Below, piece by piece: positions 1 through 37,622 of a stretch of 64,000 bases of DNA. The stretch is from an uncultured Gemmatimonadaceae bacterium (GTDB taxonomy: Bacteria; Gemmatimonadota; Gemmatimonadetes; Gemmatimonadales; Gemmatimonadaceae): contig CAVUDW010000003.1 in the NCBI GenBank assembly GCA_963740355.1, positions 1,088,001 through 1,152,000 on the forward strand. The letters run 5' to 3'. A model generated the notes under the pieces. That model saw only the letters and a list, made by a program, of their open reading frames with translations, was not told where the DNA came from and did not search any database. The position numbers were made by a program, and so were the translations under genes. The stretch's first letter is position 1, and each line of letters begins with the position of its first letter.

Positions 1-395
1 CTCCGGAGCATGAAGTCATCCCGGCTCTGCATCGCCAGCGCCGCCCCCTTGAGCCAGAGCGCCGACACCCCGGCCCCGAGCAGGGCATCGACCGCGGCAC
101 CCGCCGCTTCAGACAACTCCGCGCTGCGGAACGCGGCCACCCGGAAGATGCCCTGCATGGCATGGTGCACGTCATCCGGCACCGAGCCCACCGGCGCCGC
201 ACGCAACAGTCGGAACACCTGCGCCTCGGCCCGTTCGAACGACGTCAGCGACACCAACGTCGGCCAGTGCACATCACTCCACGGGAGCTGTGCAGCCACT
301 GACGCACCTCCATCGGGCATCGCGGCTGCCACCAGCACGCGCGCAGAGGGCGATAGCAGCGCGGGGGCCGTGCGTGGAGTCAGTGGCGCGAGCAT
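1..395 (-). CDS. Nucleotidyltransferase family protein (NTP_transf_5-like) of the RiPP cluster, 5' part only; runs off the left edge
   Basis: Hand translation from ATG at 395, 6 nt after the permease stop: MLAPLTPRTAPALLSPSARVLVAAA...DALLGAGVSALWLKGAALAMQSRDDFMLR. The LKGxAL...R motif is typical of this family. Not in the ORF track because no stop lies in the window. Confidence 0.7.
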   Translation of the reverse strand, partial: MLAPLTPRTAPALLSPSARVLVAAAMPDGGASVAAQLPWSDVHWPTLVSLTSFERAEAQVFRLLRAAPVGSVPDDVHHAMQGIFRVAAFRSAELSEAAGAAVDALLGAGVSALWLKGAALAMQSRDDFMLR

Positions 396-401
396 CAGGC
401 G

Positions 402-1205
402 TCAGTACTGCGTGAGTGTGCCGGCACGGCGCGCGTGCTGCAGCGCCAGATGGAAGCAGGCGCCGCCAAGCACGAGGCCCGCCAGCGAAAACAGCGACAG
501 CTGCAGCAGGTCAGGCAACACCGCCGACAGCGACACATCCTTCAACAGCAACTGCCGCGCGGCGCGCAAGGCGGGCGTCATCGGCACGAAGCTCGCGAAT
601 GGCGCAAACGCGGGCGGCAGGACGGTGACCGGGAAATACACGGTGCCGAGCAATGTCGATGCGGTGAGTACCGCCTGCGGAATGAAGAGCGATGATCGCA
701 CCGCCAGCACGACGGCGCCGGCGATCAGCCCAATGCCCAGATACGCCGCGCCGAGCAGGCACATGATCACCACGAATTCCATCATGCGCGGCCATGCGAT
801 GGTGGATGTCGCCCAGATCCATGCGGTCACCAGCAACACCAGTGATCGTAACGCGACCCACCCGAAACCGTACGCAGACAAGCCACCGATCATCGACGGC
901 CACCGAATCGGGGTGGTGAGCAGCTGCTCGAGCGTGCCGGAAGTGATGTAGCTGTTGATCAACGACGGAATCGCCGACACCGCTTCGGCAATCACGAACG
1001 ACGCCACCGACCCGACGATCAGGTACGTGAAGTATTCCGACGACTCGGCCGCGATCGCCTTGGCGGCCAGCGGCTGCAGGGCACCCGCGATGAAATACAC
1101 CGGGATGACGGCGATCAGCACCGACAACAAGCTCACGAGGGTGCGCGTGCGGTACGTGACCATGCTCAGCGTGTACGCGCGCGCCACCGCAAGCAGTCTA
1201 CGCAT
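402..1205 (-). CDS. ABC-2 type transporter permease
   Basis: 267 aa, about 6 hydrophobic segments, GTLEQLLTTP and GTVYFPVTVLP motifs; overlaps the ATPase gene. Confidence 0.9.
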   Translation of the reverse strand: MRRLLAVARAYTLSMVTYRTRTLVSLLSVLIAVIPVYFIAGALQPLAAKAIAAESSEYFTYLIVGSVASFVIAEAVSAIPSLINSYITSGTLEQLLTTPIRWPSMIGGLSAYGFGWVALRSLVLLVTAWIWATSTIAWPRMMEFVVIMCLLGAAYLGIGLIAGAVVLAVRSSLFIPQAVLTASTLLGTVYFPVTVLPPAFAPFASFVPMTPALRAARQLLLKDVSLSAVLPDLLQLSLFSLAGLVLGGACFHLALQHARRAGTLTQY

Positions 1206-2223
1206 GGCGGACTCCCCCCGCGGGCATCGCGCTCACACCGACGGATTCCAGCAGATCCGCCAGCGTCAGCGCGAGCGGCGCAAACTCCGCCACGCGAACG
1301 CCAGCGCGCACCAGTGCCTCGACCACGACAGGCGCGTGCGCGGCATCCGGGAGCGTTGCCTCGAGCAGGACGAAGCCATCCAGCGGCGGCGTGATCACGT
1401 CGACGGGAAGGTGGAGTAACACGCGTGCGCGCGCTTCATGAGCGGCTTCGACACGCACACGGACCCGCGCGCCACCGACCCTGGAGGCCAGTTGCTGCAA
1501 CGAGTCGGTAGCCACCACTCGCCCTCGCACCATCAACGCAGCGCGATCACACAACTGCATTGCTTCTTCCGTGTTGTGTGTGGCCAGCACGATGGTGGCG
1601 CCGAGTTGCGTGCAGAGCACGTCCCGGATGAACCGGCGAAGCTCACGCGCCGTGATCGGATCGAGGCTGCGCGTCGGTTCATCGAGGATGAGAATCGGCG
1701 GACGTGTGACCAGCGCGCGCGCAATCAACGTCCGCTGGCGCATCCCGGATGAAAAGCTGCCCACCTGCTGACGACCCACGTGCGACAGCCCGACGAGTTC
1801 CAGCGCACTGGCGACGGCAGTGTCGCGCGCCTCGCCGCGGAGCCCGTAAAGCGAGGCGAAGAGCCGAACATTCTCGGCGGCACTGATGCGCCAGAACAAC
1901 GCCCGTTCATCCGCCGGCACAACCGCGAGGCGCGTGCGAACCGCCGCGGGATCGGCGAGTGCATCGACACCATCCACCATCACGCTGCCGCGCTCTGGAA
2001 GCAGCACCGTCGAGAGGATCTTCAGCAGCGTCGTCTTCCCCGCGCCGTTGGCGCCGACGAGCCCGAAGATTTCGCCACGCTGCACGGTGAGACTGACGGC
2101 ATCGAGCACCGCGCGTTGCTGTGTGCCAGGTGCGTGCCGAAGGCGACGGAGCAGTCCGCGGTCGGCACGGAAGAACTTCGACACATCGCGAAGCGCGATC
2201 GCCGGATCGGCACCCTCGGTCAT
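1198..2223 (-). CDS. ABC transporter ATP-binding protein
   Basis: Walker A GANGAGKT, signature FSSGM, Walker B ILILDE; ATG at 2223 overlaps the kinase stop (ATGA). Confidence 0.95.
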   Translation of the reverse strand: MTEGADPAIALRDVSKFFRADRGLLRRLRHAPGTQQRAVLDAVSLTVQRGEIFGLVGANGAGKTTLLKILSTVLLPERGSVMVDGVDALADPAAVRTRLAVVPADERALFWRISAAENVRLFASLYGLRGEARDTAVASALELVGLSHVGRQQVGSFSSGMRQRTLIARALVTRPPILILDEPTRSLDPITARELRRFIRDVLCTQLGATIVLATHNTEEAMQLCDRAALMVRGRVVATDSLQQLASRVGGARVRVRVEAAHEARARVLLHLPVDVITPPLDGFVLLEATLPDAAHAPVVVEALVRAGVRVAEFAPLALTLADLLESVGVSAMPAGGVRHA

Positions 2224-3203
2224 GCTGGCACGCTGTCGTTCGCCGGTGCGTGACCATGCCACTGCAGCAACATGTCGATCACTGCACCGAGCCGAGACAG
2301 GTCGCGTGGCACAGCAAGATCGAACACCGCGGTGGCCTGTGCGATGTCGATGCAGCGCGTGAGCGCATCACCGGCAGCATCGGCGCCAAGGAGTTCCGTG
2401 ATCTTTCCATTCGAGAGTAACGCAAGCGCTGCGGCGCGCGTTGTACGAGGCGCACGCGCGACGTCCGCATCGGGCGACACTGGCGAGAGCACGTAGACGG
2501 CAGCCAGCGGAAGTGCGTCCGTGGCCACGTCGGCAACCACGCGCACTTTCCCCCAGTCATCGACAGTGCTCGACGCAACACCGACGGCTCGTGCGGTTTC
2601 GGCGCGCAATCGAAGCGGCAGTCCAGTCGGCGTCACTGTGACGCCGTGCGCACTCTGTCGCAGCACGACGACATCGTCGGCGACGAGGGCGCATCCGGCC
2701 TGCAGGCACGCAGTGGCGAGCGTGGACTTGCCCGTGCCACGTGGAGCGACGAATGCCACAACACCATCACCCATCACAACCGCGCTGGCGTGCATGCACC
2801 AGTCGCCGTCGCGGTGCAGTGCGTACGGCAACACCACACCGATCAGGTCAAGCGCGACCGCACTGCGGTCCACTCCCGAGGGTGCGAGGTGCGCAATCCG
2901 CCGACCGTCGTTCGAAAGCGTGAAGCGCCCGGTGTCAGTGACGAGGATCTCCGCACCGCCGACGCCTGTCGCAAGCGTCACATCGATGCCGTTCGAATAG
3001 GTGTGTCGCCCGATGATGGTTGCGGCCGGGTCGTGCTCGATGGCTCCCACATCCGACGGCGTCGTACACAGCTCCCAGAACGGGAACTGCCCATCACCGG
3101 GAGCGGCGACAGGCAGGCCAGGAAGTGGGCGATCGGTGGCGAGCACTCTGCCAAACACACGAACCCGCCCCGGCGCGAGATGCGCAGCTGGAGCGGGCTG
3201 CAT
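2220..3203 (-). CDS. HPr kinase/phosphorylase-like peptide kinase (paeninodin PadeK-like)
   Basis: MHASAV...APRGTGKSTLA...LVADD motifs; start placed at the ATG 4 nt after the precursor stop. Confidence 0.85.
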   Translation of the reverse strand: MQPAPAAHLAPGRVRVFGRVLATDRPLPGLPVAAPGDGQFPFWELCTTPSDVGAIEHDPAATIIGRHTYSNGIDVTLATGVGGAEILVTDTGRFTLSNDGRRIAHLAPSGVDRSAVALDLIGVVLPYALHRDGDWCMHASAVVMGDGVVAFVAPRGTGKSTLATACLQAGCALVADDVVVLRQSAHGVTVTPTGLPLRLRAETARAVGVASSTVDDWGKVRVVADVATDALPLAAVYVLSPVSPDADVARAPRTTRAAALALLSNGKITELLGADAAGDALTRCIDIAQATAVFDLAVPRDLSRLGAVIDMLLQWHGHAPANDSVPA

Positions 3204-3207
3204 CACA

Positions 3208-3378
3208 TCAGGAACGCGTTCCGCCGCCTGGTGGCGTCGTCTCACCCGGAATGCAGTCACAGGAGGCGACGGAGCCATTGATGACATTCGAATTCAGCGC
3301 AAATGCCCCGAGGTTCAGCGACACCTGGGTCAGCTCGCGAAACGTGCCATAGCGCTCGAGGCGCGGCCGCTCGTACAT
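3208..3378 (-). CDS. Lasso-type RiPP precursor peptide, 56 aa
   Basis: MYERPRLERYGTFRELTQ-VSLNLGAFALNSNVINGSVASCDCIPGETTPPGGGTRS. YxxPxL...G...T leader; GAGAGG Shine-Dalgarno 6 nt upstream; lies between the B2 peptidase and the kinase. Confidence 0.85.
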   Translation of the reverse strand: MYERPRLERYGTFRELTQVSLNLGAFALNSNVINGSVASCDCIPGETTPPGGGTRS

Positions 3379-3471
3379 GGAATGCCTCTCAGTCATCTGG
3401 CAAAAAGTGTCGGATGCGCGCCACAGAGACAAGGGCTCTGTGGCATATCTCCACCGCTGCGACGCCCTAAG

Positions 3472-3912
3472 TCAGCGCAGCGTCACACCTTGGAGCGAGG
3501 AAAACCCTCCCCGCAGTGCTTCAGGCTCGGCAATTGGTGTGCCGTCCTGCTCCACCCAGGCGTGGGCCTCGAAGCCCGACGGACCTCGCCGGACCCCGAT
3601 GCGCACCACGGCCCTTGGCAAGCCGTGCTGGGTCACCAGTTCGCGGAGCGCGCTGGCCCGCACGAGGCAGGCCGAGTCACCGGGAAGCCAGCGGAGGGCC
3701 CGATCGACCGCCGCGCCCCAGCGCTCTGCGTGGCGGCGGTCCGCCGGCGACAGTGCCGACTCTCGTCTGGACTCAACAGACTCGGAGACATCATCGGCGG
3801 TGCGTTCAACGAGGGTTCCGACCGGGCGACCCGCCACGAGGCGGCGGGCCCGAACCACGGCCACTGCCGCCAGGCCGACATCGAATGCGGCTCGGGCCTT
3901 CCGCACCAGCAC
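3472..3912 (-). CDS. Lasso peptide biosynthesis B2 protein (transglutaminase-like leader peptidase)
   Basis: CLVRA...VRIGVRR...EAHAWVE catalytic Cys/His motifs; GTG start. Confidence 0.9.
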   Translation of the reverse strand: MLVRKARAAFDVGLAAVAVVRARRLVAGRPVGTLVERTADDVSESVESRRESALSPADRRHAERWGAAVDRALRWLPGDSACLVRASALRELVTQHGLPRAVVRIGVRRGPSGFEAHAWVEQDGTPIAEPEALRGGFSSLQGVTLR

Positions 3913-3917
3913 GCTGG

Positions 3918-4202
3918 TCAGCCCAGCGTTGCAGCGGTGTCCACGAGCAGCCCTTCGATCGACAGGTCCGCCAGCAACTCGCGGACGTGGCAGACTACGT
4001 CGGTCGCGCCTGCGTCAGGCCAGCGCTCGCGAACGGCGGCGGCCAGCGCCTCCTCGGACGACGCGCCGCTGGCCAAGGCCTGCCAGATCACGGTGCCGGT
4101 TTCATTCAGACCGAAATACACCTCGGTCAGCGGATGAAAGAGCACGCTGCCGTCGGGCAGTGTGCGCGTGACCACATCGGGGTGCGGAACGGGAAGCGAC
4201 AT
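3918..4202 (-). CDS. PqqD-family RiPP recognition element (lasso B1)
   Basis: About 94 aa: DGSVLFHPLTEVYFGLNETGTVIWQAL...VRELLADLSIEGLL; start could instead be 4226. Confidence 0.88.
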   Translation of the reverse strand: MSLPVPHPDVVTRTLPDGSVLFHPLTEVYFGLNETGTVIWQALASGASSEEALAAAVRERWPDAGATDVVCHVRELLADLSIEGLLVDTAATLG

Positions 4203-4389
4203 CGAGACGGAAAAGGGAATCGGCATCCGGAAGTGAGACGCGCGGGATGCATTCGGGAAACGCACAAAGCGCTCCATCGCGGCAGGGGGTCGCGCACTGC
4301 GACCACCGACCGCGCGCCCTGATACAGACCCCTTCACCTCACGTTCCGTTAAGCAACGAACTCAGCCGAAACAACGTGCCCGCTCTCGT

Positions 4390-5727
4390 TCAGCGTCCAG
4401 GTGCAGGAGCCGATGCAACGCCGCTGACCAGTTTCCCTTCCTTCATCACCATCCGCACACGCTCGATCGCCGCGATCTCACGCGTCGGATCGCCATCGAC
4501 GGCCACGAGGTCGGCCAACATGCCCGGTGCCACGGTGCCGATCCGGTCGCCCATGTCGAGCACCTTGGCGGCAGCAGAGGTGGCGGAGACCAGCGCCTGT
4601 GTCGGTGTGAGGCCGTACTCCACCATCAGGATGGGTTCCCGCGCATTGGTGCCGTGCGTGAACACACCGACGTCACTGCCGTTCGCAATCGTGACGCCGG
4701 CGTCGATCGCCATCTTCACGCTCGCCCGCTTGGCGGTGATGCGCGCGGGTTCCGCACCGGTGCCCTTCTTCCAGCCACCGTACTGCGAGACGGCATCTCC
4801 AGCGGCGACCGTCGGCACCAGCACGACACCACGTTCCTTCATCAGGCGAAAGACTTCCGGCGTGCCATCGTCGCCATGGTCGATGGTTTTCACGCCCGCG
4901 AGAATCGCGCGCCGCATGCCTTCCGGTGTCGTCGAGTGGGCGACGACGTGCCGCCCGCTCGACTCAGCGATTTCAACCACCAGGTTCAATTCGGCCTGCG
5001 TGAAGGCCGGGCGCGCACTGCCATTCGCGCCCCAGCGATAGTCCGCGTAGATCTTGATCCAGTCCGCACCACGGCGGATCTGGTCGCGCACCACACGCGA
5101 CAGTTCTTCCGGCCCGGCAGCCTCCTCGGCGCCTTGCGGCACATCGACTTCCGGTGCGAAGCCACCCGGTCCGTAACTGCCGCGCATCACGATGGCGCGC
5201 GTGACGACGACGAGGCGTGGCCCTTCGATGATGCCCTGCTCGACCGCCTTCTTGAGCCCCACGTCCGCGTCAGCCGCGCCTTCAGTACCGAGGTCGCGCA
5301 AGGTGGTGAATCCTGCGCGCAGTGTGCGCTGCATGCTGACGGTCGCGCGGGCGACGCGAAGTCCGAGTGGCTCCTTGAGCACCTGATCATTCCACGTCGC
5401 TTCGTTGTACGGGTGCAGCAGCACATGCGAGTGGAGGTCGATCATGCCCGGCATCAACGTCATGCCAGGCAGGTCGATGACCGTCGCATCGCTTGGTGCC
5501 TTCACGCTTGCCGGTGAACCCACCGCCGTGATGCGGCCATTCTGCACCAACACCACCACGCCGGACTGCGGAGCCTGGCCCGTGCCATCGAAGACACGCG
5601 CCGGCTTGAGCAGGTAGCTGACCGATACGGCGGCGACGGGGGCTGCCTGTGCTGCGACCAGTGACGGCACGAGTGCTGCGACTGCGGACACACATCGGAG
5701 AACACGTGCGAAGGGCATGAGCATCAT
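4390..5727 (-). CDS. Secreted amidohydrolase (Xaa-Pro dipeptidase-like metallo-dependent hydrolase)
   Basis: Signal peptide, [39 protein letters not shown]. Confidence 0.9.
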
Positions 5728-7817
5728 CGTGAGCAGAGTGAGGGGCGTGCGGCGCTCGACGCGGGCGAAGTGGCAGCGGGTGATGCCGGTGCCGCAATCG
5801 ATGATGCATCGCGCGGCCAGACGTTGTCGGATGGGTCTCGATCGGGAAAACGACAGCCCGGATCAAAGAGCACCTGCGTGATGCGACGATTGCCGAAGTT
5901 GAGCACTGCGTCGAAGGTGCGCTTGCCACCGAACCAGACATCGACCGGCCAGGTGACGATGGCCGTCACGCTGTCCTGCATGACGGCGTTCGGCATCGGC
6001 TTGATCGCTGGGCCGGTGGCATCGAATCGCACGCGCAGCACGACCGGTGATGGCATCTGTCCATCCTGTCGCACAGTGACGGTGGTGCGCGATCCTTTCA
6101 CTGCCAGGTTCGCGATCGAACCGTCGACACGTTCGGTGGTGAAGAGCCAGGAATACCAGAACCACCCGAGATCACGATTGAGGGCCTTGTTCATGAAGAA
6201 CATGTAGTCCCACGGCGACGGATGCTTGAACATCCAGGCGGTCGCCCATTCACGCTGCGCGCGCCGTACTGCCGAATCGCCGACCACACCACCGAGCATC
6301 GACAGCATCAACGGCGTCTTGCCATAGGTGGTGAAGCTGTACGAGGGGCCGGCGTAGTTCGCGTTCCACATCATTGGCGGCTCGCTCTCACTGCCGCTGG
6401 TGAGGCCGTACGACTGTCCCAGGCGATCGAGATTCGGCGACTGCTTCGTGTTGTCGGCCGCCGAGAGGATGTTCATGTACTGGTTGAATCCTTCATCCAT
6501 CCAGCCGTACCAGGTCTCGTTGTTGCTCACCACCATCGGCCACCACTGATGCCCGGTTTCGTGATCGGCGGCGCCCTGATTGGAATTGATCACCATCGGG
6601 TATTCCATGCCGGCACTGGGCCCGTCCTGCAGCGTCAGTTGCGGGAACTGGTACGGGAACCAGAGTGCAGAGTAGAACTCGAGCGCATGGCGCGTGATGC
6701 GACCCGCATTGGCGAACAGGGCTTCCCGTCCCGGCAGGTAGACCATGTGCACCGGCACCGGACCCTTGCCAGGTATGGTGGCGCGTGTTGCCTGCCAGAC
6801 GAACTTCTTCGCCGTGGCCCATGCAAAGTCATTGACGTTGTCGGCCACGAGGTGCCACACCAGTCGATCACCAATCGCCGTGGCCTGCCCCGGGCCAATT
6901 TCAGTCGGACCGACGATGGTGACGATGCTGTCGCTCTCCAGCACGCGCGCGAGACTGGCACGTGCAGCGGCCGTAAGCACCTGATCCGGATTCTGCAGCA
7001 CGCCGGTGCCGCTGACGATCCAGCCTCCGGGCACATCGATCTTCACATCGAAGCGGCCGAAGTTGTTGTAGAACTCTGACGGGCCCAGATACAGCTCCGG
7101 ATCCCAGCCACGCAGGTCGTCATAGACGGCGATGCGCGGGAACCACTGTGTGGGCTGAAAGAGTGAATCAGCCCAGCGTTGTGTCATGCGATGGCCAGAC
7201 CCTGGCCCGCCCGGCAGCGCGTGGTTCCACTCGATGTCGATGGTGGCACTGCCGTTCGGTGCAATGGCGGATGCGAGGAAGAGTCGCGCGAGCGTGGACT
7301 TCAGGTTCACCACGGCGGCTTCGGTGGCGACGGCGCCGCGTGAGGGCGGCGGCGCGTCGAACCGCACCGGCTTGCCATTGACGCGAATGGCCGTGACCAC
7401 CATGCCGTCGGTCAGCTGCGCCGGCACCCACGGCAATGCGCGTGGATTGGTCCCGATGAAATGGTTGGCATCCAGCCGCAGTGCGATCTGCGAGAGCGAG
7501 TCGGGGCTGGCGTTGTGAAGCGTGATCGTCTCGCGCCCACTCAGACGCTGGGCGGGCACATCGAGTCGCGCCTGGATGACATAGTCGGTGCGCAGTTGCC
7601 AGTATTTCGCGCCGGGCTTGCCGGTGGAGTCGCGGGTCCCGGCACGAAACGCGGCGCGGATCGCGTCGGTCATCGGGATGTCGCGACGGATGGCGCGGTC
7701 GGGCCAGGCTGACGGAGCGGACTGGGCAAGCGCTGTGGACGCTGCCAATACGAGGATGGCGGGGAGTCGAAGCACGGGCGAACAGGCCCGGATGTGGCGT
7801 ACGATTTGGCAAGGCAT
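5724..7817 (-). CDS. M1 family zinc metallopeptidase, secreted
   Basis: AGMEYP and HETGH-X18-E zinc motif; signal peptide; start uncertain. Confidence 0.88.
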
Positions 7818-7863
7818 GCGGAATCGTCGACCACAACGACCGCAGGCGCAAGAGCGGCGGGTA

Positions 7864-9282
7864 CTATTCGCCGAGCGCGAGCACCGACGCCACGGCGGCG
7901 AGCGTGCGCCGCACATCCTCCGCATTCGTGCGCCAGTTCACGACGCTGACACGCATGGCCCGCTGTCCCTGCCACGTGGTGCCGCTGAAAAAGGCCTCGC
8001 CGGTGGCATTCACGCCCTCGATCACGGCATCGGTACGCCGGTCGTGATCGGCGCTCGTTGCCCCCAGGCGCGGGTCGAGGAACCGCACCAGACCCTGATT
8101 CAGGTTCGGTTCCCAGAGCACCTCGGCGCCTGGCAACGCGCCGATGCCGGTGACGATGGAGTGGCAGTGTGCACAGTCGCGATCGATCAGGTCGGCGAGG
8201 CCGTTGCGGCCCATTTCCCGAAGGGCCGCAAAGACGGCGAACCCACGCGCACGACGTGACCACTCCGGATTCCAGTCGATCTGGCTCCGTACATCGGTGT
8301 TCTCGGAGATGTACGAGGCCGAGAGTGTCATGGAAGCGCGATGCGCCTCGCGGTCACGCACGACGGCAAAGCCGCAGTCGTACGGTACGTTGAGCCACTT
8401 GTGTGCATCGGTGGCCCAGCTGTCCGCGAGCTCGACGCCGCGCAGCAGTTCTCGCTTGGTCGCGCTGGCACGCGCCATCAGGCCGAACGCACCGTCGATG
8501 TGCACCCAGGCGCCAGCAGCATGCGCGATCGGGATGAGCGTCGCAAAATCATCGATGGCACCGATGTTGAGGTCCGCGGCATCGAGCACCACGATCGTCG
8601 GTCCAGCGTGTGCGGCCAGCGCTGCGGCGAGCGTCCTGGCTTCGACGACGCCTATGTGGTTGGTGGGCAGCGCCACCAACGCATTGCTGCCGATACCGAG
8701 GAAGCGAATCGCGCGATCGATCGAGCCGTGGCGATGTTCACTGGTCAGGACACGAATCGCTGGCGCACCAAACAATCCATCGCCGTGCACATCCCAGCCC
8801 GCGCGTGAAAGGACTGCATGACGGGCGGCGGCAAGCGCGGTGAAATGCGCCAGTTGGCAGCCAGTGGTGAACGCGAATGATGCATCGCGCGGCAGGTCGA
8901 GCACGTCGAGCAACCATGCGCCCGCTACTTCCTCGACGACGGCCGCCGCCGGCGCCGTGGAATAGATGGCGGCATTCTGATCCCACGCGCACGTCAACCA
9001 ATCCGCCGCCAGCGCCGATGGCAGCGCCCCGCCGATGACCCAGGCGAAAAATCGTCCGCTGACCGCGGCATGCAATCCGCCATCGGTCATCGCGACGAGG
9101 TCGTCGATCACCTGCTCCGCGCTGACGCCATCCGCTTCGAGTGCGATGTGCATCCTGCGCCGCAACTCGGCGGCGGAAGCGGTGGCGCCGACCGAGCGGG
9201 TATCGATGCCGTCGAGCCACGCGAGCGCAGCAGCGTGCGCGCGCTCGAGGGCCGCGTGTGCGGTGGGGTGGGGCGTGGTCAT
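7864..9282 (-). CDS. Group II pyridoxal-phosphate-dependent decarboxylase (aromatic amino acid/glutamate decarboxylase family)
   Basis: WVHIDGAFG, ADSWATDAHKWLNVPYDCG (PLP lysine), EWSRRARG. Confidence 0.92.
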   Translation of the reverse strand: MTTPHPTAHAALERAHAAALAWLDGIDTRSVGATASAAELRRRMHIALEADGVSAEQVIDDLVAMTDGGLHAAVSGRFFAWVIGGALPSALAADWLTCAWDQNAAIYSTAPAAAVVEEVAGAWLLDVLDLPRDASFAFTTGCQLAHFTALAAARHAVLSRAGWDVHGDGLFGAPAIRVLTSEHRHGSIDRAIRFLGIGSNALVALPTNHIGVVEARTLAAALAAHAGPTIVVLDAADLNIGAIDDFATLIPIAHAAGAWVHIDGAFGLMARASATKRELLRGVELADSWATDAHKWLNVPYDCGFAVVRDREAHRASMTLSASYISENTDVRSQIDWNPEWSRRARGFAVFAALREMGRNGLADLIDRDCAHCHSIVTGIGALPGAEVLWEPNLNQGLVRFLDPRLGATSADHDRRTDAVIEGVNATGEAFFSGTTWQGQRAMRVSVVNWRTNAEDVRRTLAAVASVLALGE

Positions 9283-9348
9283 GGTGCGGGCGTGAACGGA
9301 GGCACGGGAGGCAAATCGGCCGAGAGGGTGCGCGGCATTTTCGCAGGG

Positions 9349-9534
9349 TAACGTATTGGTGCGTCTGGAGTTAGCACGCGATCAAGGGGTCGGAGATCTT
9401 GGTCGATCAAGGGGTCAGAGATCTTGGTCGGCCGATTGCAGGCGTAAGCGGTTGCTGCATATGGAGTTAGCATCTGATCAAGATCTCCGACCCCTTGGTC
9501 TTCCGACGCGTTGATCAGGTCCGACCCGTGGATC
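9349..9534. repeat. Modular intergenic repeat, locus 1
   Basis: Arms GATCAAGGGGTC(G/A)GAGATCTTGGTC at 9380-9404 and 9405-9429, inverted arm at 9476-9500; 25-bp TAA..TTA boxes at 9349-9373 and 9445-9469; degenerate arms to 9534. Confidence 0.9.
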
Positions 9535-9587
9535 TTCCTGCCGCCGTCTGTCGCCGGCCATGGTTCACGTCCCTGCGCTTGTCCAGC

Positions 9588-9623
9588 AAAACCAAAACGC
9601 CCCCCGGATAACCGGGAGGCGTT
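9588..9623 (-). terminator. Intrinsic terminator after rpsG
   Basis: Minus strand AACGCCTCCCGG-TTAT-CCGGGGGGCGTT followed by TTGGTTTT. Confidence 0.8.
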
Positions 9624-9646
9624 CTGTACTGCGACGGAATCGACGA

Positions 9647-10113
9647 CTACCAGCGGTAGTGCGCGAAGGCCTTGTTGGCCTCGGCCATGCGGTGCGTGTC
9701 TTCCTTCTTCTTGATCGCGTTGCCTTCGCCCTTGCTGGCGGCGATGACTTCCGCAGCCAGGCGCTCCGGCATCGACTTCTCGTTGCGATCGCGCGAATAG
9801 CTGATCAACCAACGCATCGCGAGCGCCGTGCGGCGATCGGGACGGACTTCGACCGGCACCTGATACGTGGCACCGCCGACGCGGCGGCTCTTCACTTCCA
9901 CGACCGGCTTCAGGTTCGTCAGGGCCTGCTTGAAGATGTTCACGCCCGGCTGGCTGGTGCGTGCTTCCACCAGGTCCATCGCGGCGTAGAAGATCTTCTC
10001 TGACGTGGCCTTGCGACCCTGCAGCATCAGGTTGTTGATGAACTTGCTGACAGTCTGGCTGTCGTAGCGGGCATCAGGCAGGATGATGCGCTTTACGGAC
10101 TTTTTGCGGCGGC

Positions 10114-10117
<4 letters not shown>
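9647..10117 (-). CDS. rpsG: 30S ribosomal protein S7
   Basis: [34 protein letters not shown] start overlaps the rpsL stop. Confidence 0.99.
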
Positions 10118-10530
<413 letters not shown>

Positions 10531-10605
10531 TGCCTCTGAGTGTTCGGACCCCGACATCTACGTGGATCGCTCCCCGGGGCGGGGGCGGCACGGAACAGAC
10601 CTGCA

Positions 10606-10635
10606 AACCTAGGTGGTCAGGGGGGTGAGCGTCAA
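10606..10635 (-). promoter_or_regulatory. Putative sigma-70 promoter for rpsL-rpsG
   Basis: TTGACG-N18-TAGGTT on the minus strand, about 75 nt upstream of the rpsL ATG. Confidence 0.55.
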
Positions 10636-10712
10636 CCGCAGACTTTCGCGCGTACCCAATCAGGGGGATCAATTCGGGTCCCCGACGAGTCAACCGCGCA
10701 CCCCTACGAACG

Positions 10713-36428: not shown

Positions 36429-37622
<1,194 letters not shown>

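Follow-up and report, generated by a model that had tools for sequence, protein, structure and literature searches.

What does a bacterium make from a precursor peptide that carries a canonical lasso leader on a core without an acceptor acid for the lasso ring? This question is raised by precursor gene A, a 56-aa open reading frame (ORF) in the genome of an uncultured Gemmatimonadaceae bacterium. Its product is MYERPRLERYGTFRELTQVSLNLGAFALNSNVINGSVASCDCIPGETTPPGGGTRS (translation of window positions 3208-3378, minus strand; the window is the whole stretch of 64,000 nucleotides that was analysed). The leader contains Tyr2, Pro5, Leu7, Gly11 and Thr17, the last at position -2, and matches the NCBIfam model NF033521 (lasso_leader_L3) at 27.2 bits, above the cut-off of 19. 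A preliminary description had recognized the YxxPxL motif, the Thr at -2 and a 38-aa core in which residues 7-9 are A-F-A, Asp23 and Glu28 are the only acids and a C-D-C motif is present; our translation is identical in all these respects. It had offered two options: a non-lasso RiPP that reuses lasso leader machinery, or a cryptic ring formed after a later cleavage.

Gene A is confirmed as a real ORF. A Shine-Dalgarno-like GAGAGG lies 6 nt 5′ of its ATG, and only 5 nt separate its stop codon from the ATG of the following kinase gene. It is the sole NF033521 match in the whole genome (5.45 Mb, five contigs), and a six-frame regular-expression search for the leader motif gave four matches, with gene A the only one near lasso genes. 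A second canonical precursor beyond the window, which the preliminary description had raised, is absent from the assembled genome by both searches.

Gene A belongs to a co-directional cluster on the minus strand, in the order B1, B2, precursor A, HprK-like kinase K, ABC ATPase, ABC-2 permease and NTP_transf_5, with the genes overlapping or separated by short gaps. The cluster lies between rpsG and fusA. Features of the region are as follows.

1-395, minus strand: NTP_transf_5 nucleotidyltransferase, N-terminal part (PF14907, 123 bits)
402-1205, minus strand: ABC-2 type permease (PF01061, 35 bits)
1198-2223, minus strand: ABC transporter ATPase (PF00005, 113 bits; DrrA-like TIGR01188, 220 bits)
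2220-3203, minus strand: probable HprK-like kinase K, 327 aa, Walker A GTGKS (weak HMM matches and predicted fold)
3208-3378, minus strand: precursor gene A, 56 aa, stop codon included (translation, NF033521 and conservation)
3325-3378, minus strand: leader of A, residues 1-18
3211-3324, minus strand: predicted core of A, residues 19-56
3208-3210, minus strand: stop codon of A
3379-3471, minus strand: B2-A intergenic region, 93 nt, with a genus-conserved non-coding motif and a ribosome-binding site (alignment)
3472-3912, minus strand: B2 leader peptidase, a transglutaminase-like Cys protease, 146 aa (PF13471, 78 bits; NF033537 lasso_biosyn_B2, 68 bits, cut-off 33)
3918-4226, minus strand: B1 leader-binding protein, PqqD-like RRE (PF05402, 43 bits; TbiB1, PDB 5V1U, E = 2e-4)
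4390-5727, minus strand: secreted amidohydrolase, Xaa-Pro-dipeptidase-like (PF01979, 131 bits; NF051886, 290 bits, below its cut-off of 500; signal-peptide-like N terminus)
5724-7817, minus strand: secreted M1-family metallopeptidase (PF01433; HExxH motif; signal-peptide-like N terminus)
7864-9282, minus strand: PLP-dependent decarboxylase, between rpsG and the M1 peptidase
9593-9626, minus strand: terminator-like hairpin, 15-bp stem, directly after rpsG (the total of terminator-like sites is not above that in shuffled sequences)
9647-10557, minus strand: rpsL-rpsG, upstream flank of the insertion site (PF00164, PF00177)

The wider minus-strand order is thus rpsL, rpsG, hairpin, PLP decarboxylase, M1 metallopeptidase, amidohydrolase, B1 through NTP_transf_5, fusA and tuf. 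B2 starts with GTG, 5 nt past the B1 stop, and is present in one copy in the genome; the B1 frame is open to 4337, with a likely start at the ATG at 4226 or 4202. The likely ATG of the ABC ATPase, at 2223, overlaps the kinase stop (ATGA). The 406-aa NTP_transf_5 gene extends off the left edge of the window (L010:15175-16395), and fusA follows it after 286 nt, with the genes for EF-G and EF-Tu lying downstream. The kinase gene, fusA, rpsG and rpsL are each single-copy in the genome. Two copies of tuf (window 36432-37622, and off-window G000:C3:1083539-1084729), about 40 kb apart, encode identical EF-Tu proteins. In a PDB sequence search, B1 matched TbiB1 as listed above, the kinase and NTP_transf_5 gave nothing meaningful, and the weak matches of B2 were chance matches to repeat proteins.

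Since the HMM scores of the kinase are weak (PF07475, 19.7 bits, below the cut-off; TIGR04352, 25 bits), we predicted its structure from a 26-sequence alignment. In a Foldseek comparison with the PDB, the AlphaFold model (pLDDT 89) most closely resembled PEP carboxykinases and one HPr(Ser) kinase (E = 2e-7 to 1e-5). PEPCK and HprK have a common fold. The G-K-S of the P loop is invariant in the 26 aligned sequences. We therefore call K a putative HprK-like kinase, an assignment that draws on the weak HMM scores together with the predicted fold.

The key fact, which the preliminary description had not seen, is that the cyclase gene is missing. Pfam searches of the cluster ORFs revealed no Asn-synthetase-type lasso cyclase, and the gap between B2 and A, only 93 nt long (3379-3471), contains no cyclase remnant. 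The same holds for other loci of the genus. When we used three cyclases from sister loci in tblastn searches of 18 genus loci (17 from the precursor scan and one partial locus), no cyclase was found, and 16 of the 18 loci span both B2 and A. A further locus, L051, has the same cluster order, likewise without a cyclase. Thus, the cluster lacks a macrolactam cyclase, and here its absence is seen directly.

Elsewhere in the genome, we found five long Asn-synthase paralogues, all on other contigs and all scoring below the cut-offs of both lasso-cyclase models; the nearest weak Asn-synthase match on the contig that carries the cluster is more than 480 kb away. The three sister cyclases share 43-48% identity among themselves (402-541 bits), while their best match in this genome is about 26% identical and scores at most 107 bits. 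Cyclase orthologues in other genera of Gemmatimonadaceae score 229-676 bits, and none of the 20 genus genomes contains a match better than 104 bits or 28% identity. As these genomes are all metagenome-assembled and 81-100% complete, a cyclase could still lie elsewhere in a genome, and for the genomes we say only that it was not found.

To learn whether the unusual core is peculiar to this copy, we turn to its homologues, as the preliminary description had suggested. Each of the 19 other species genomes in the genus contains a homologue of the precursor, full-length in 18 and cut by a contig end in one, so that 19 of the 20 genus genomes contain an intact ORF. The 19 genus copies are 81% identical per aligned column, with YxxPxL, the Thr at -2 and core Ser2 invariant. 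A search of 5.8 billion proteins yielded another 50 metagenomic protein clusters of homologues, 62-93% identical. Pooling the metagenomic clusters with the genus copies gave 61 distinct cores.

None of these 61 cores has Asp or Glu at positions 7-9. The preliminary description had considered that close homologues might all carry an acid there; the opposite is the case. As the stretch is free of acids in 61 of 61 cores, it is neither a sequencing error nor the mark of a degenerate copy. Other parts of the core are strongly conserved. The CDC motif occurs in 60 of the 61 cores, and in all 60, Gly17 and Asp23, the latter being the Asp of CDC and six residues further on, are both invariant at a fixed, lasso-like spacing. 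The position of Glu28 is acidic in only 50 of the 60. An Arg-Ser C terminus is found in 58 of the 61 cores, and the three exceptions appear truncated or frameshifted. The pattern G[TSA]xASCDC[IL]P, sought in 185,579 species genomes, occurred in this genus only. Three unpublished genomes (G026, G075 and G076) enter the tallies of precursor homologues, of cyclases from other genera and of M1 peptidase orthologues as single counts only.

All genes of the cluster are under purifying selection. In pairwise Nei-Gojobori comparisons within the genus, median dN/dS was 0.08 for A, 0.19 for B1, 0.24 for B2, 0.27 for K, 0.28 for NTP_transf_5, 0.15 for the ABC ATPase and 0.17 for the ABC-2 permease, values that are rough because dS, at about 1.1, is near saturation. 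Within the precursor, pN/pS was 0.04 for the leader, 0.17 for core residues 1-26 and 0.50 for the tail. The Cys and His of B2, part of what we take, after McjB, to be a Cys-His-Asp triad, are invariant in our alignment. The third catalytic position is Glu in eight of eight aligned genus sequences, Asp in five of six sisters and Glu in the cyclase-bearing locus L058. The low dN/dS and the retained catalytic residues of B2 indicate that the cluster is maintained and not decaying.

Alignment of 17 upstream regions from the genus revealed conserved non-coding blocks about 25-60 nt 5′ of the precursor ATG, which could be a dedicated promoter. A sigma-70 promoter scan detected none on the minus strand, with counts not above those in shuffled sequences. 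The B2-A spacer did not fold better than shuffled versions (z = -0.6), and window positions 1-10700 contained no Rfam match at E ≤ 0.1.

Which of the neighboring genes belong to the pathway was assessed by comparison with other loci. Only in this genus are the M1 peptidase and amidohydrolase genes found directly upstream of B1. Orthologues of the M1 peptidase occur in 18 other genera (57-72% identity), and in none of these 18 does the gene adjoin rpsG, the amidohydrolase gene or lasso genes; it thus appears to have been relocated rather than duplicated, being the single orthologue of a gene sited elsewhere in those genera. As both genes are also missing from the divergent locus L117 described below, we rejected them as pathway members, and they probably stand outside the pathway. 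The PLP decarboxylase was likewise set aside: it lies between rpsG and the M1 peptidase in the present genome (G000) and in L051 but is missing from that spot in the other genus loci.

The relatives of the cluster reveal how the present state may have arisen. The cyclase-less order rpsG, M1 peptidase, amidohydrolase, B1, B2, A, K, ABC, ABC-2, NTP_transf_5, fusA is common to the 16 genus loci covering both B2 and A, to G000 and to L051. In other Gemmatimonadaceae genera the order is B1, B2, C, A, K, ABC, ABC-2, NTP_transf_5, where C is an Asn-synthase-type cyclase of 640-780 aa located between B2 and A. We confirmed this cyclase with Pfam and NCBIfam models in three loci and by 40-52% identity to those in L091-L095 and L119. 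These sister lasso loci (L056, L058, L064 and L091-L095) and the present cluster have gene order, strand, leader and often chromosomal site in common, and their K, ABC, ABC-2 and NTP_transf_5 proteins are 28-51% identical to those described here. However, the sisters have a cyclase and cores with Asp8 or Asp9, mostly Ser-terminal, whereas the present cluster has neither the cyclase nor the acid. Sister loci L056, L059, L065, L091, L092 and L095 are located either next to fusA or in the rpsG-fusA interval.

A second, divergent cyclase-less lineage is represented by L117, a single metagenome contig. Its K is 39%, its B2 50% and its EF-G 89% identical to those of the present locus. Between rpsG and fusA, the cluster genes of L117 follow the same order, likewise without a cyclase, and the M1 peptidase and amidohydrolase genes are missing, as noted. 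Its core contains CDC, and the first ~10 core residues are unrelated. In both cyclase-less lineages, no other part of the core is as conserved as A-S/A-C-D-C-(I/L/V).

In a tree built from concatenated K, ABC and ABC-2 proteins, a single branch with an SH-aLRT value of 100 separates 10 cyclase-less from 8 cyclase-bearing loci (18 of 20 loci; L059 and L062 lack two of the three genes and were left out). As one branch separates the groups, one change of cyclase state suffices. We infer that this change was a loss, since B2 together with a Thr(-2) leader is otherwise known only from cyclase-containing pathways and since L064, which comes from another family, falls among the cyclase-bearing loci. 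As cyclase-bearing sisters occupy the same chromosomal site, the states before and after the loss can be compared gene by gene.

Several other loci came to light in these searches. L093 and L094 contain two tandem cyclase-precursor pairs (B1-B2-C-A-C-A-K...), with a canonical core in each precursor. L033 (G032:C273) has two precursors, one with a Trp/Arg-rich core devoid of acidic residues, adjoining a canonical one with Asp9. The str operon (rpsG-fusA) houses a lasso or lasso-derived cluster in the co-directional orientation in several Gemmatimonadaceae genera (L056, L059, L065, L091, L092, L095 and L117). Two loci matched through the leader only, and both were uninformative: L060 has no lasso genes nearby, and L061 is an ordinary cyclase-bearing cluster.

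Taken together, these results favor the view, to which we assign a probability of roughly 60%, that a lasso-peptide gene cluster here lost its macrolactam cyclase and was kept as a working linear-peptide pathway. Of the two options in the preliminary description, the non-lasso RiPP that reuses lasso leader machinery is the one that is supported: B1, B2, kinase, exporter and nucleotidyltransferase were kept, no cyclase is present and 0 of 61 cores have an acid at 7-9. The later-cleaved cryptic ring fares poorly, as the enzyme for it is missing.

By analogy with characterised relatives, from which the cleavage, phosphorylation, glycosylation and export steps are all drawn, the pathway could proceed as follows. 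B1, judging from its homology, would bind the YxxPxL leader. B2 would then cleave after Gln18, with the Thr at -2 as guide, to release the 38-residue core. As the cluster lacks a cyclase and the core has no acceptor acid at positions 7-9, no ring would form. The HprK-like kinase would phosphorylate the C-terminal Ser of the still-linear peptide, the NTP_transf_5 enzyme may attach a sugar to the Ser phosphate, and the ABC/ABC-2 pair would export the product. The most likely product would thus be a leader-trimmed linear peptide that is phosphorylated, perhaps glycosylated on its C-terminal Ser, and exported. The conserved Arg-Ser end fits a kinase target, and core Ser2, also conserved, is an alternative candidate site. 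We propose that the invariant G-x-x-A-S-C-D-C-(I/L/V)-P segment and the Arg-Ser tail together form the functional heart of the predicted product; the segment could serve in recognition or provide a disulfide or a metal site. The linear model leaves the invariance of Gly17 and Asp23, at their lasso-like spacing, without explanation. The host, an uncultured soil and sediment bacterium, is most likely a maker of a linear phosphate-tagged peptide and not of a lasso.

An alternative places the chemistry in the CDC motif: a disulfide, a metal site or modification by an unlinked enzyme would define a linear or otherwise modified product, with phosphorylation secondary or absent. The conservation of A-S/A-C-D-C-(I/L/V) above all other parts of the core, in both lineages, speaks for such a role, and sister lasso cores also contain two Cys, though widely spaced. 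However, the cluster encodes no enzyme of Cys chemistry, and purifying selection has conserved the kinase and the nucleotidyltransferase as well as the terminal Arg-Ser. We regard this alternative as possible but rather unlikely.

A cryptic ring is harder to sustain. Here a second trimming would remove the 16-residue hydrophobic stretch, after which a non-Asn-synthetase enzyme or an unlinked paralogue would close a 7-residue Gly17-Asp23 macrolactam. This corresponds to the Gly1-Asp7 ring of the preliminary description, of which the residues and their spacing have held up, being invariant in 60 of 60 CDC cores, while such a ring would call for a further protease site as well as a cyclase, which our searches did not find. 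The first ~10 core residues, wholly different in L117, resemble a spacer, and two secreted peptidases adjoin the cluster in this genus. However, residue -2 relative to Gly17 is I, V or L and not Thr, and the adjoining peptidases are relocated, family-wide housekeeping orthologues, absent from L117. Moreover, neither the 20 genus genomes nor the present genome searched on its own yielded a cyclase orthologue. We therefore hold a cryptic ring to be very improbable. The Ser1-Glu8 ring that had been proposed alongside it finds no enzyme either, and its acceptor position is acidic in only the 50 of 60 cores noted above.

One form of the cryptic ring would have a non-Asn-synthetase enzyme of the cluster, for example the HprK-like kinase or NTP_transf_5, activate the Asp carboxylate once the second trimming has exposed Gly17. 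If true, the Gly17-Asp23 macrolactam would be a lasso-like ring made by a new enzymatic route. The kinase and the nucleotidyltransferase are also present in the cyclase-bearing sister clusters, so neither is a cyclase replacement. We give this form less credence still. Finally, a decaying, functionless remnant, to which the loss of both cyclase and acceptor acid might point, is scarcely credible and already contradicted by the intact ORFs in all but one of the 20 genus genomes (the exception is cut at a contig end), the 50 metagenomic clusters, dN/dS values of 0.08-0.28 across all genes (dS about 1.1), and the retained B2 catalytic residues and kinase P loop.

How does the proposed linear-peptide pathway relate to known systems? 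Of the features of a lasso cluster, it has the leader and the B1/B2 pair and lacks the cyclase and the Asp or Glu at 7-9. Of the features of paeninodin-type clusters, it has an adjoining HprK-like kinase (by weak HMM scores and predicted fold) and a C-terminal Ser, in 58 of 61 cores. According to the available portions of a review, lasso kinases act on the linear precursor, placing a phosphate on its C-terminal Ser, and do not work on the threaded form, and in pseudomycoidin the associated nucleotidyltransferase attaches a hexose to the phosphate (PMC8498205). The present cluster resembles those of paeninodin, the proteobacterial polyphosphorylated lassos and pseudomycoidin, as that text presents them, in the B1/B2 split, the HprK-like kinase, the C-terminal Ser and the NTP_transf_5-type enzyme. 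However, paeninodin-type clusters use a cyclase and an Asp/Glu acceptor to make threaded lariats (PMC8498205, same portions), and the present cluster is without both.

Among the literature surveyed, mostly titles and the beginnings of abstracts, we found no account of a lasso cluster without a cyclase, in Gemmatimonadota or elsewhere. Searches for "HprK-related kinase" returned nothing, and those for lasso clusters at rpsG/fusA gave nothing on this location. One paper on lasso peptides of Gemmatimonadota merely counts lasso clusters (PMC11316326). In the sections of the RRE-Finder paper at hand, only ~4,000 of almost 8,000 proteins from the discrete lasso-RRE model co-occur with a leader peptidase and a cyclase, and the remainder are treated as possible false positives (PMC7470986). 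For genome-mining tools that infer a lasso peptide from a lasso leader plus B1/B2, the present cluster is a warning. It also offers a natural test of how B1/B2, the kinase and the nucleotidyltransferase act without a cyclase, and its 61 distinct cores form a defined peptide family for biochemistry.

The closest functional parallel is with the linear polyphosphorylated peptides (LPPs) of Bacillota (lppA-K-B-S-D-N; Popov et al., Nat Commun 2026, PMC13381572). As described in the accessible text of that paper, cyclase-free clusters with an RRE, an HprK and an NTP transferase make linear polyphosphorylated peptides, which its authors call linear analogues of phosphorylated lasso peptides and state to be restricted to Bacillota; "Gemmatimonad" has no occurrence in its main text. 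Going by the same text, LPP clusters and the present one both lack a macrolactam cyclase and contain an RRE in discrete form, a kinase resembling HprK, an NTP transferase and an exporter. However, the LPP leader peptidase is the SpI-like LppS, with no B2, whereas the present cluster has B2 and, by Pfam searches of every cluster ORF, no signal-peptidase domain. The LPP leader reads YxxPxVLxHQxIxFETxxS; the leader of gene A, with Thr at -2 and a Gly nine positions after Tyr (+9), is a lasso-type leader and does not fit. The LPP exporter is an MsbA-like pump and not an ABC ATPase and ABC-2 permease encoded by two genes, and LPPs are phosphorylated on Ser3, near the N terminus, whereas the conserved candidate here is the C-terminal Ser. 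The first report of linear analogues of phosphorylated lasso peptides dates from 2026 and concerns Bacillota only, where, in the text available, a signal-peptidase-like enzyme takes the place of B2 (PMC13381572). Most likely, the present cluster works like an LPP cluster yet is not a member of that group, having arisen separately; the same outcome would thus have been reached independently in Gemmatimonadota, with the lasso B2 protease kept.
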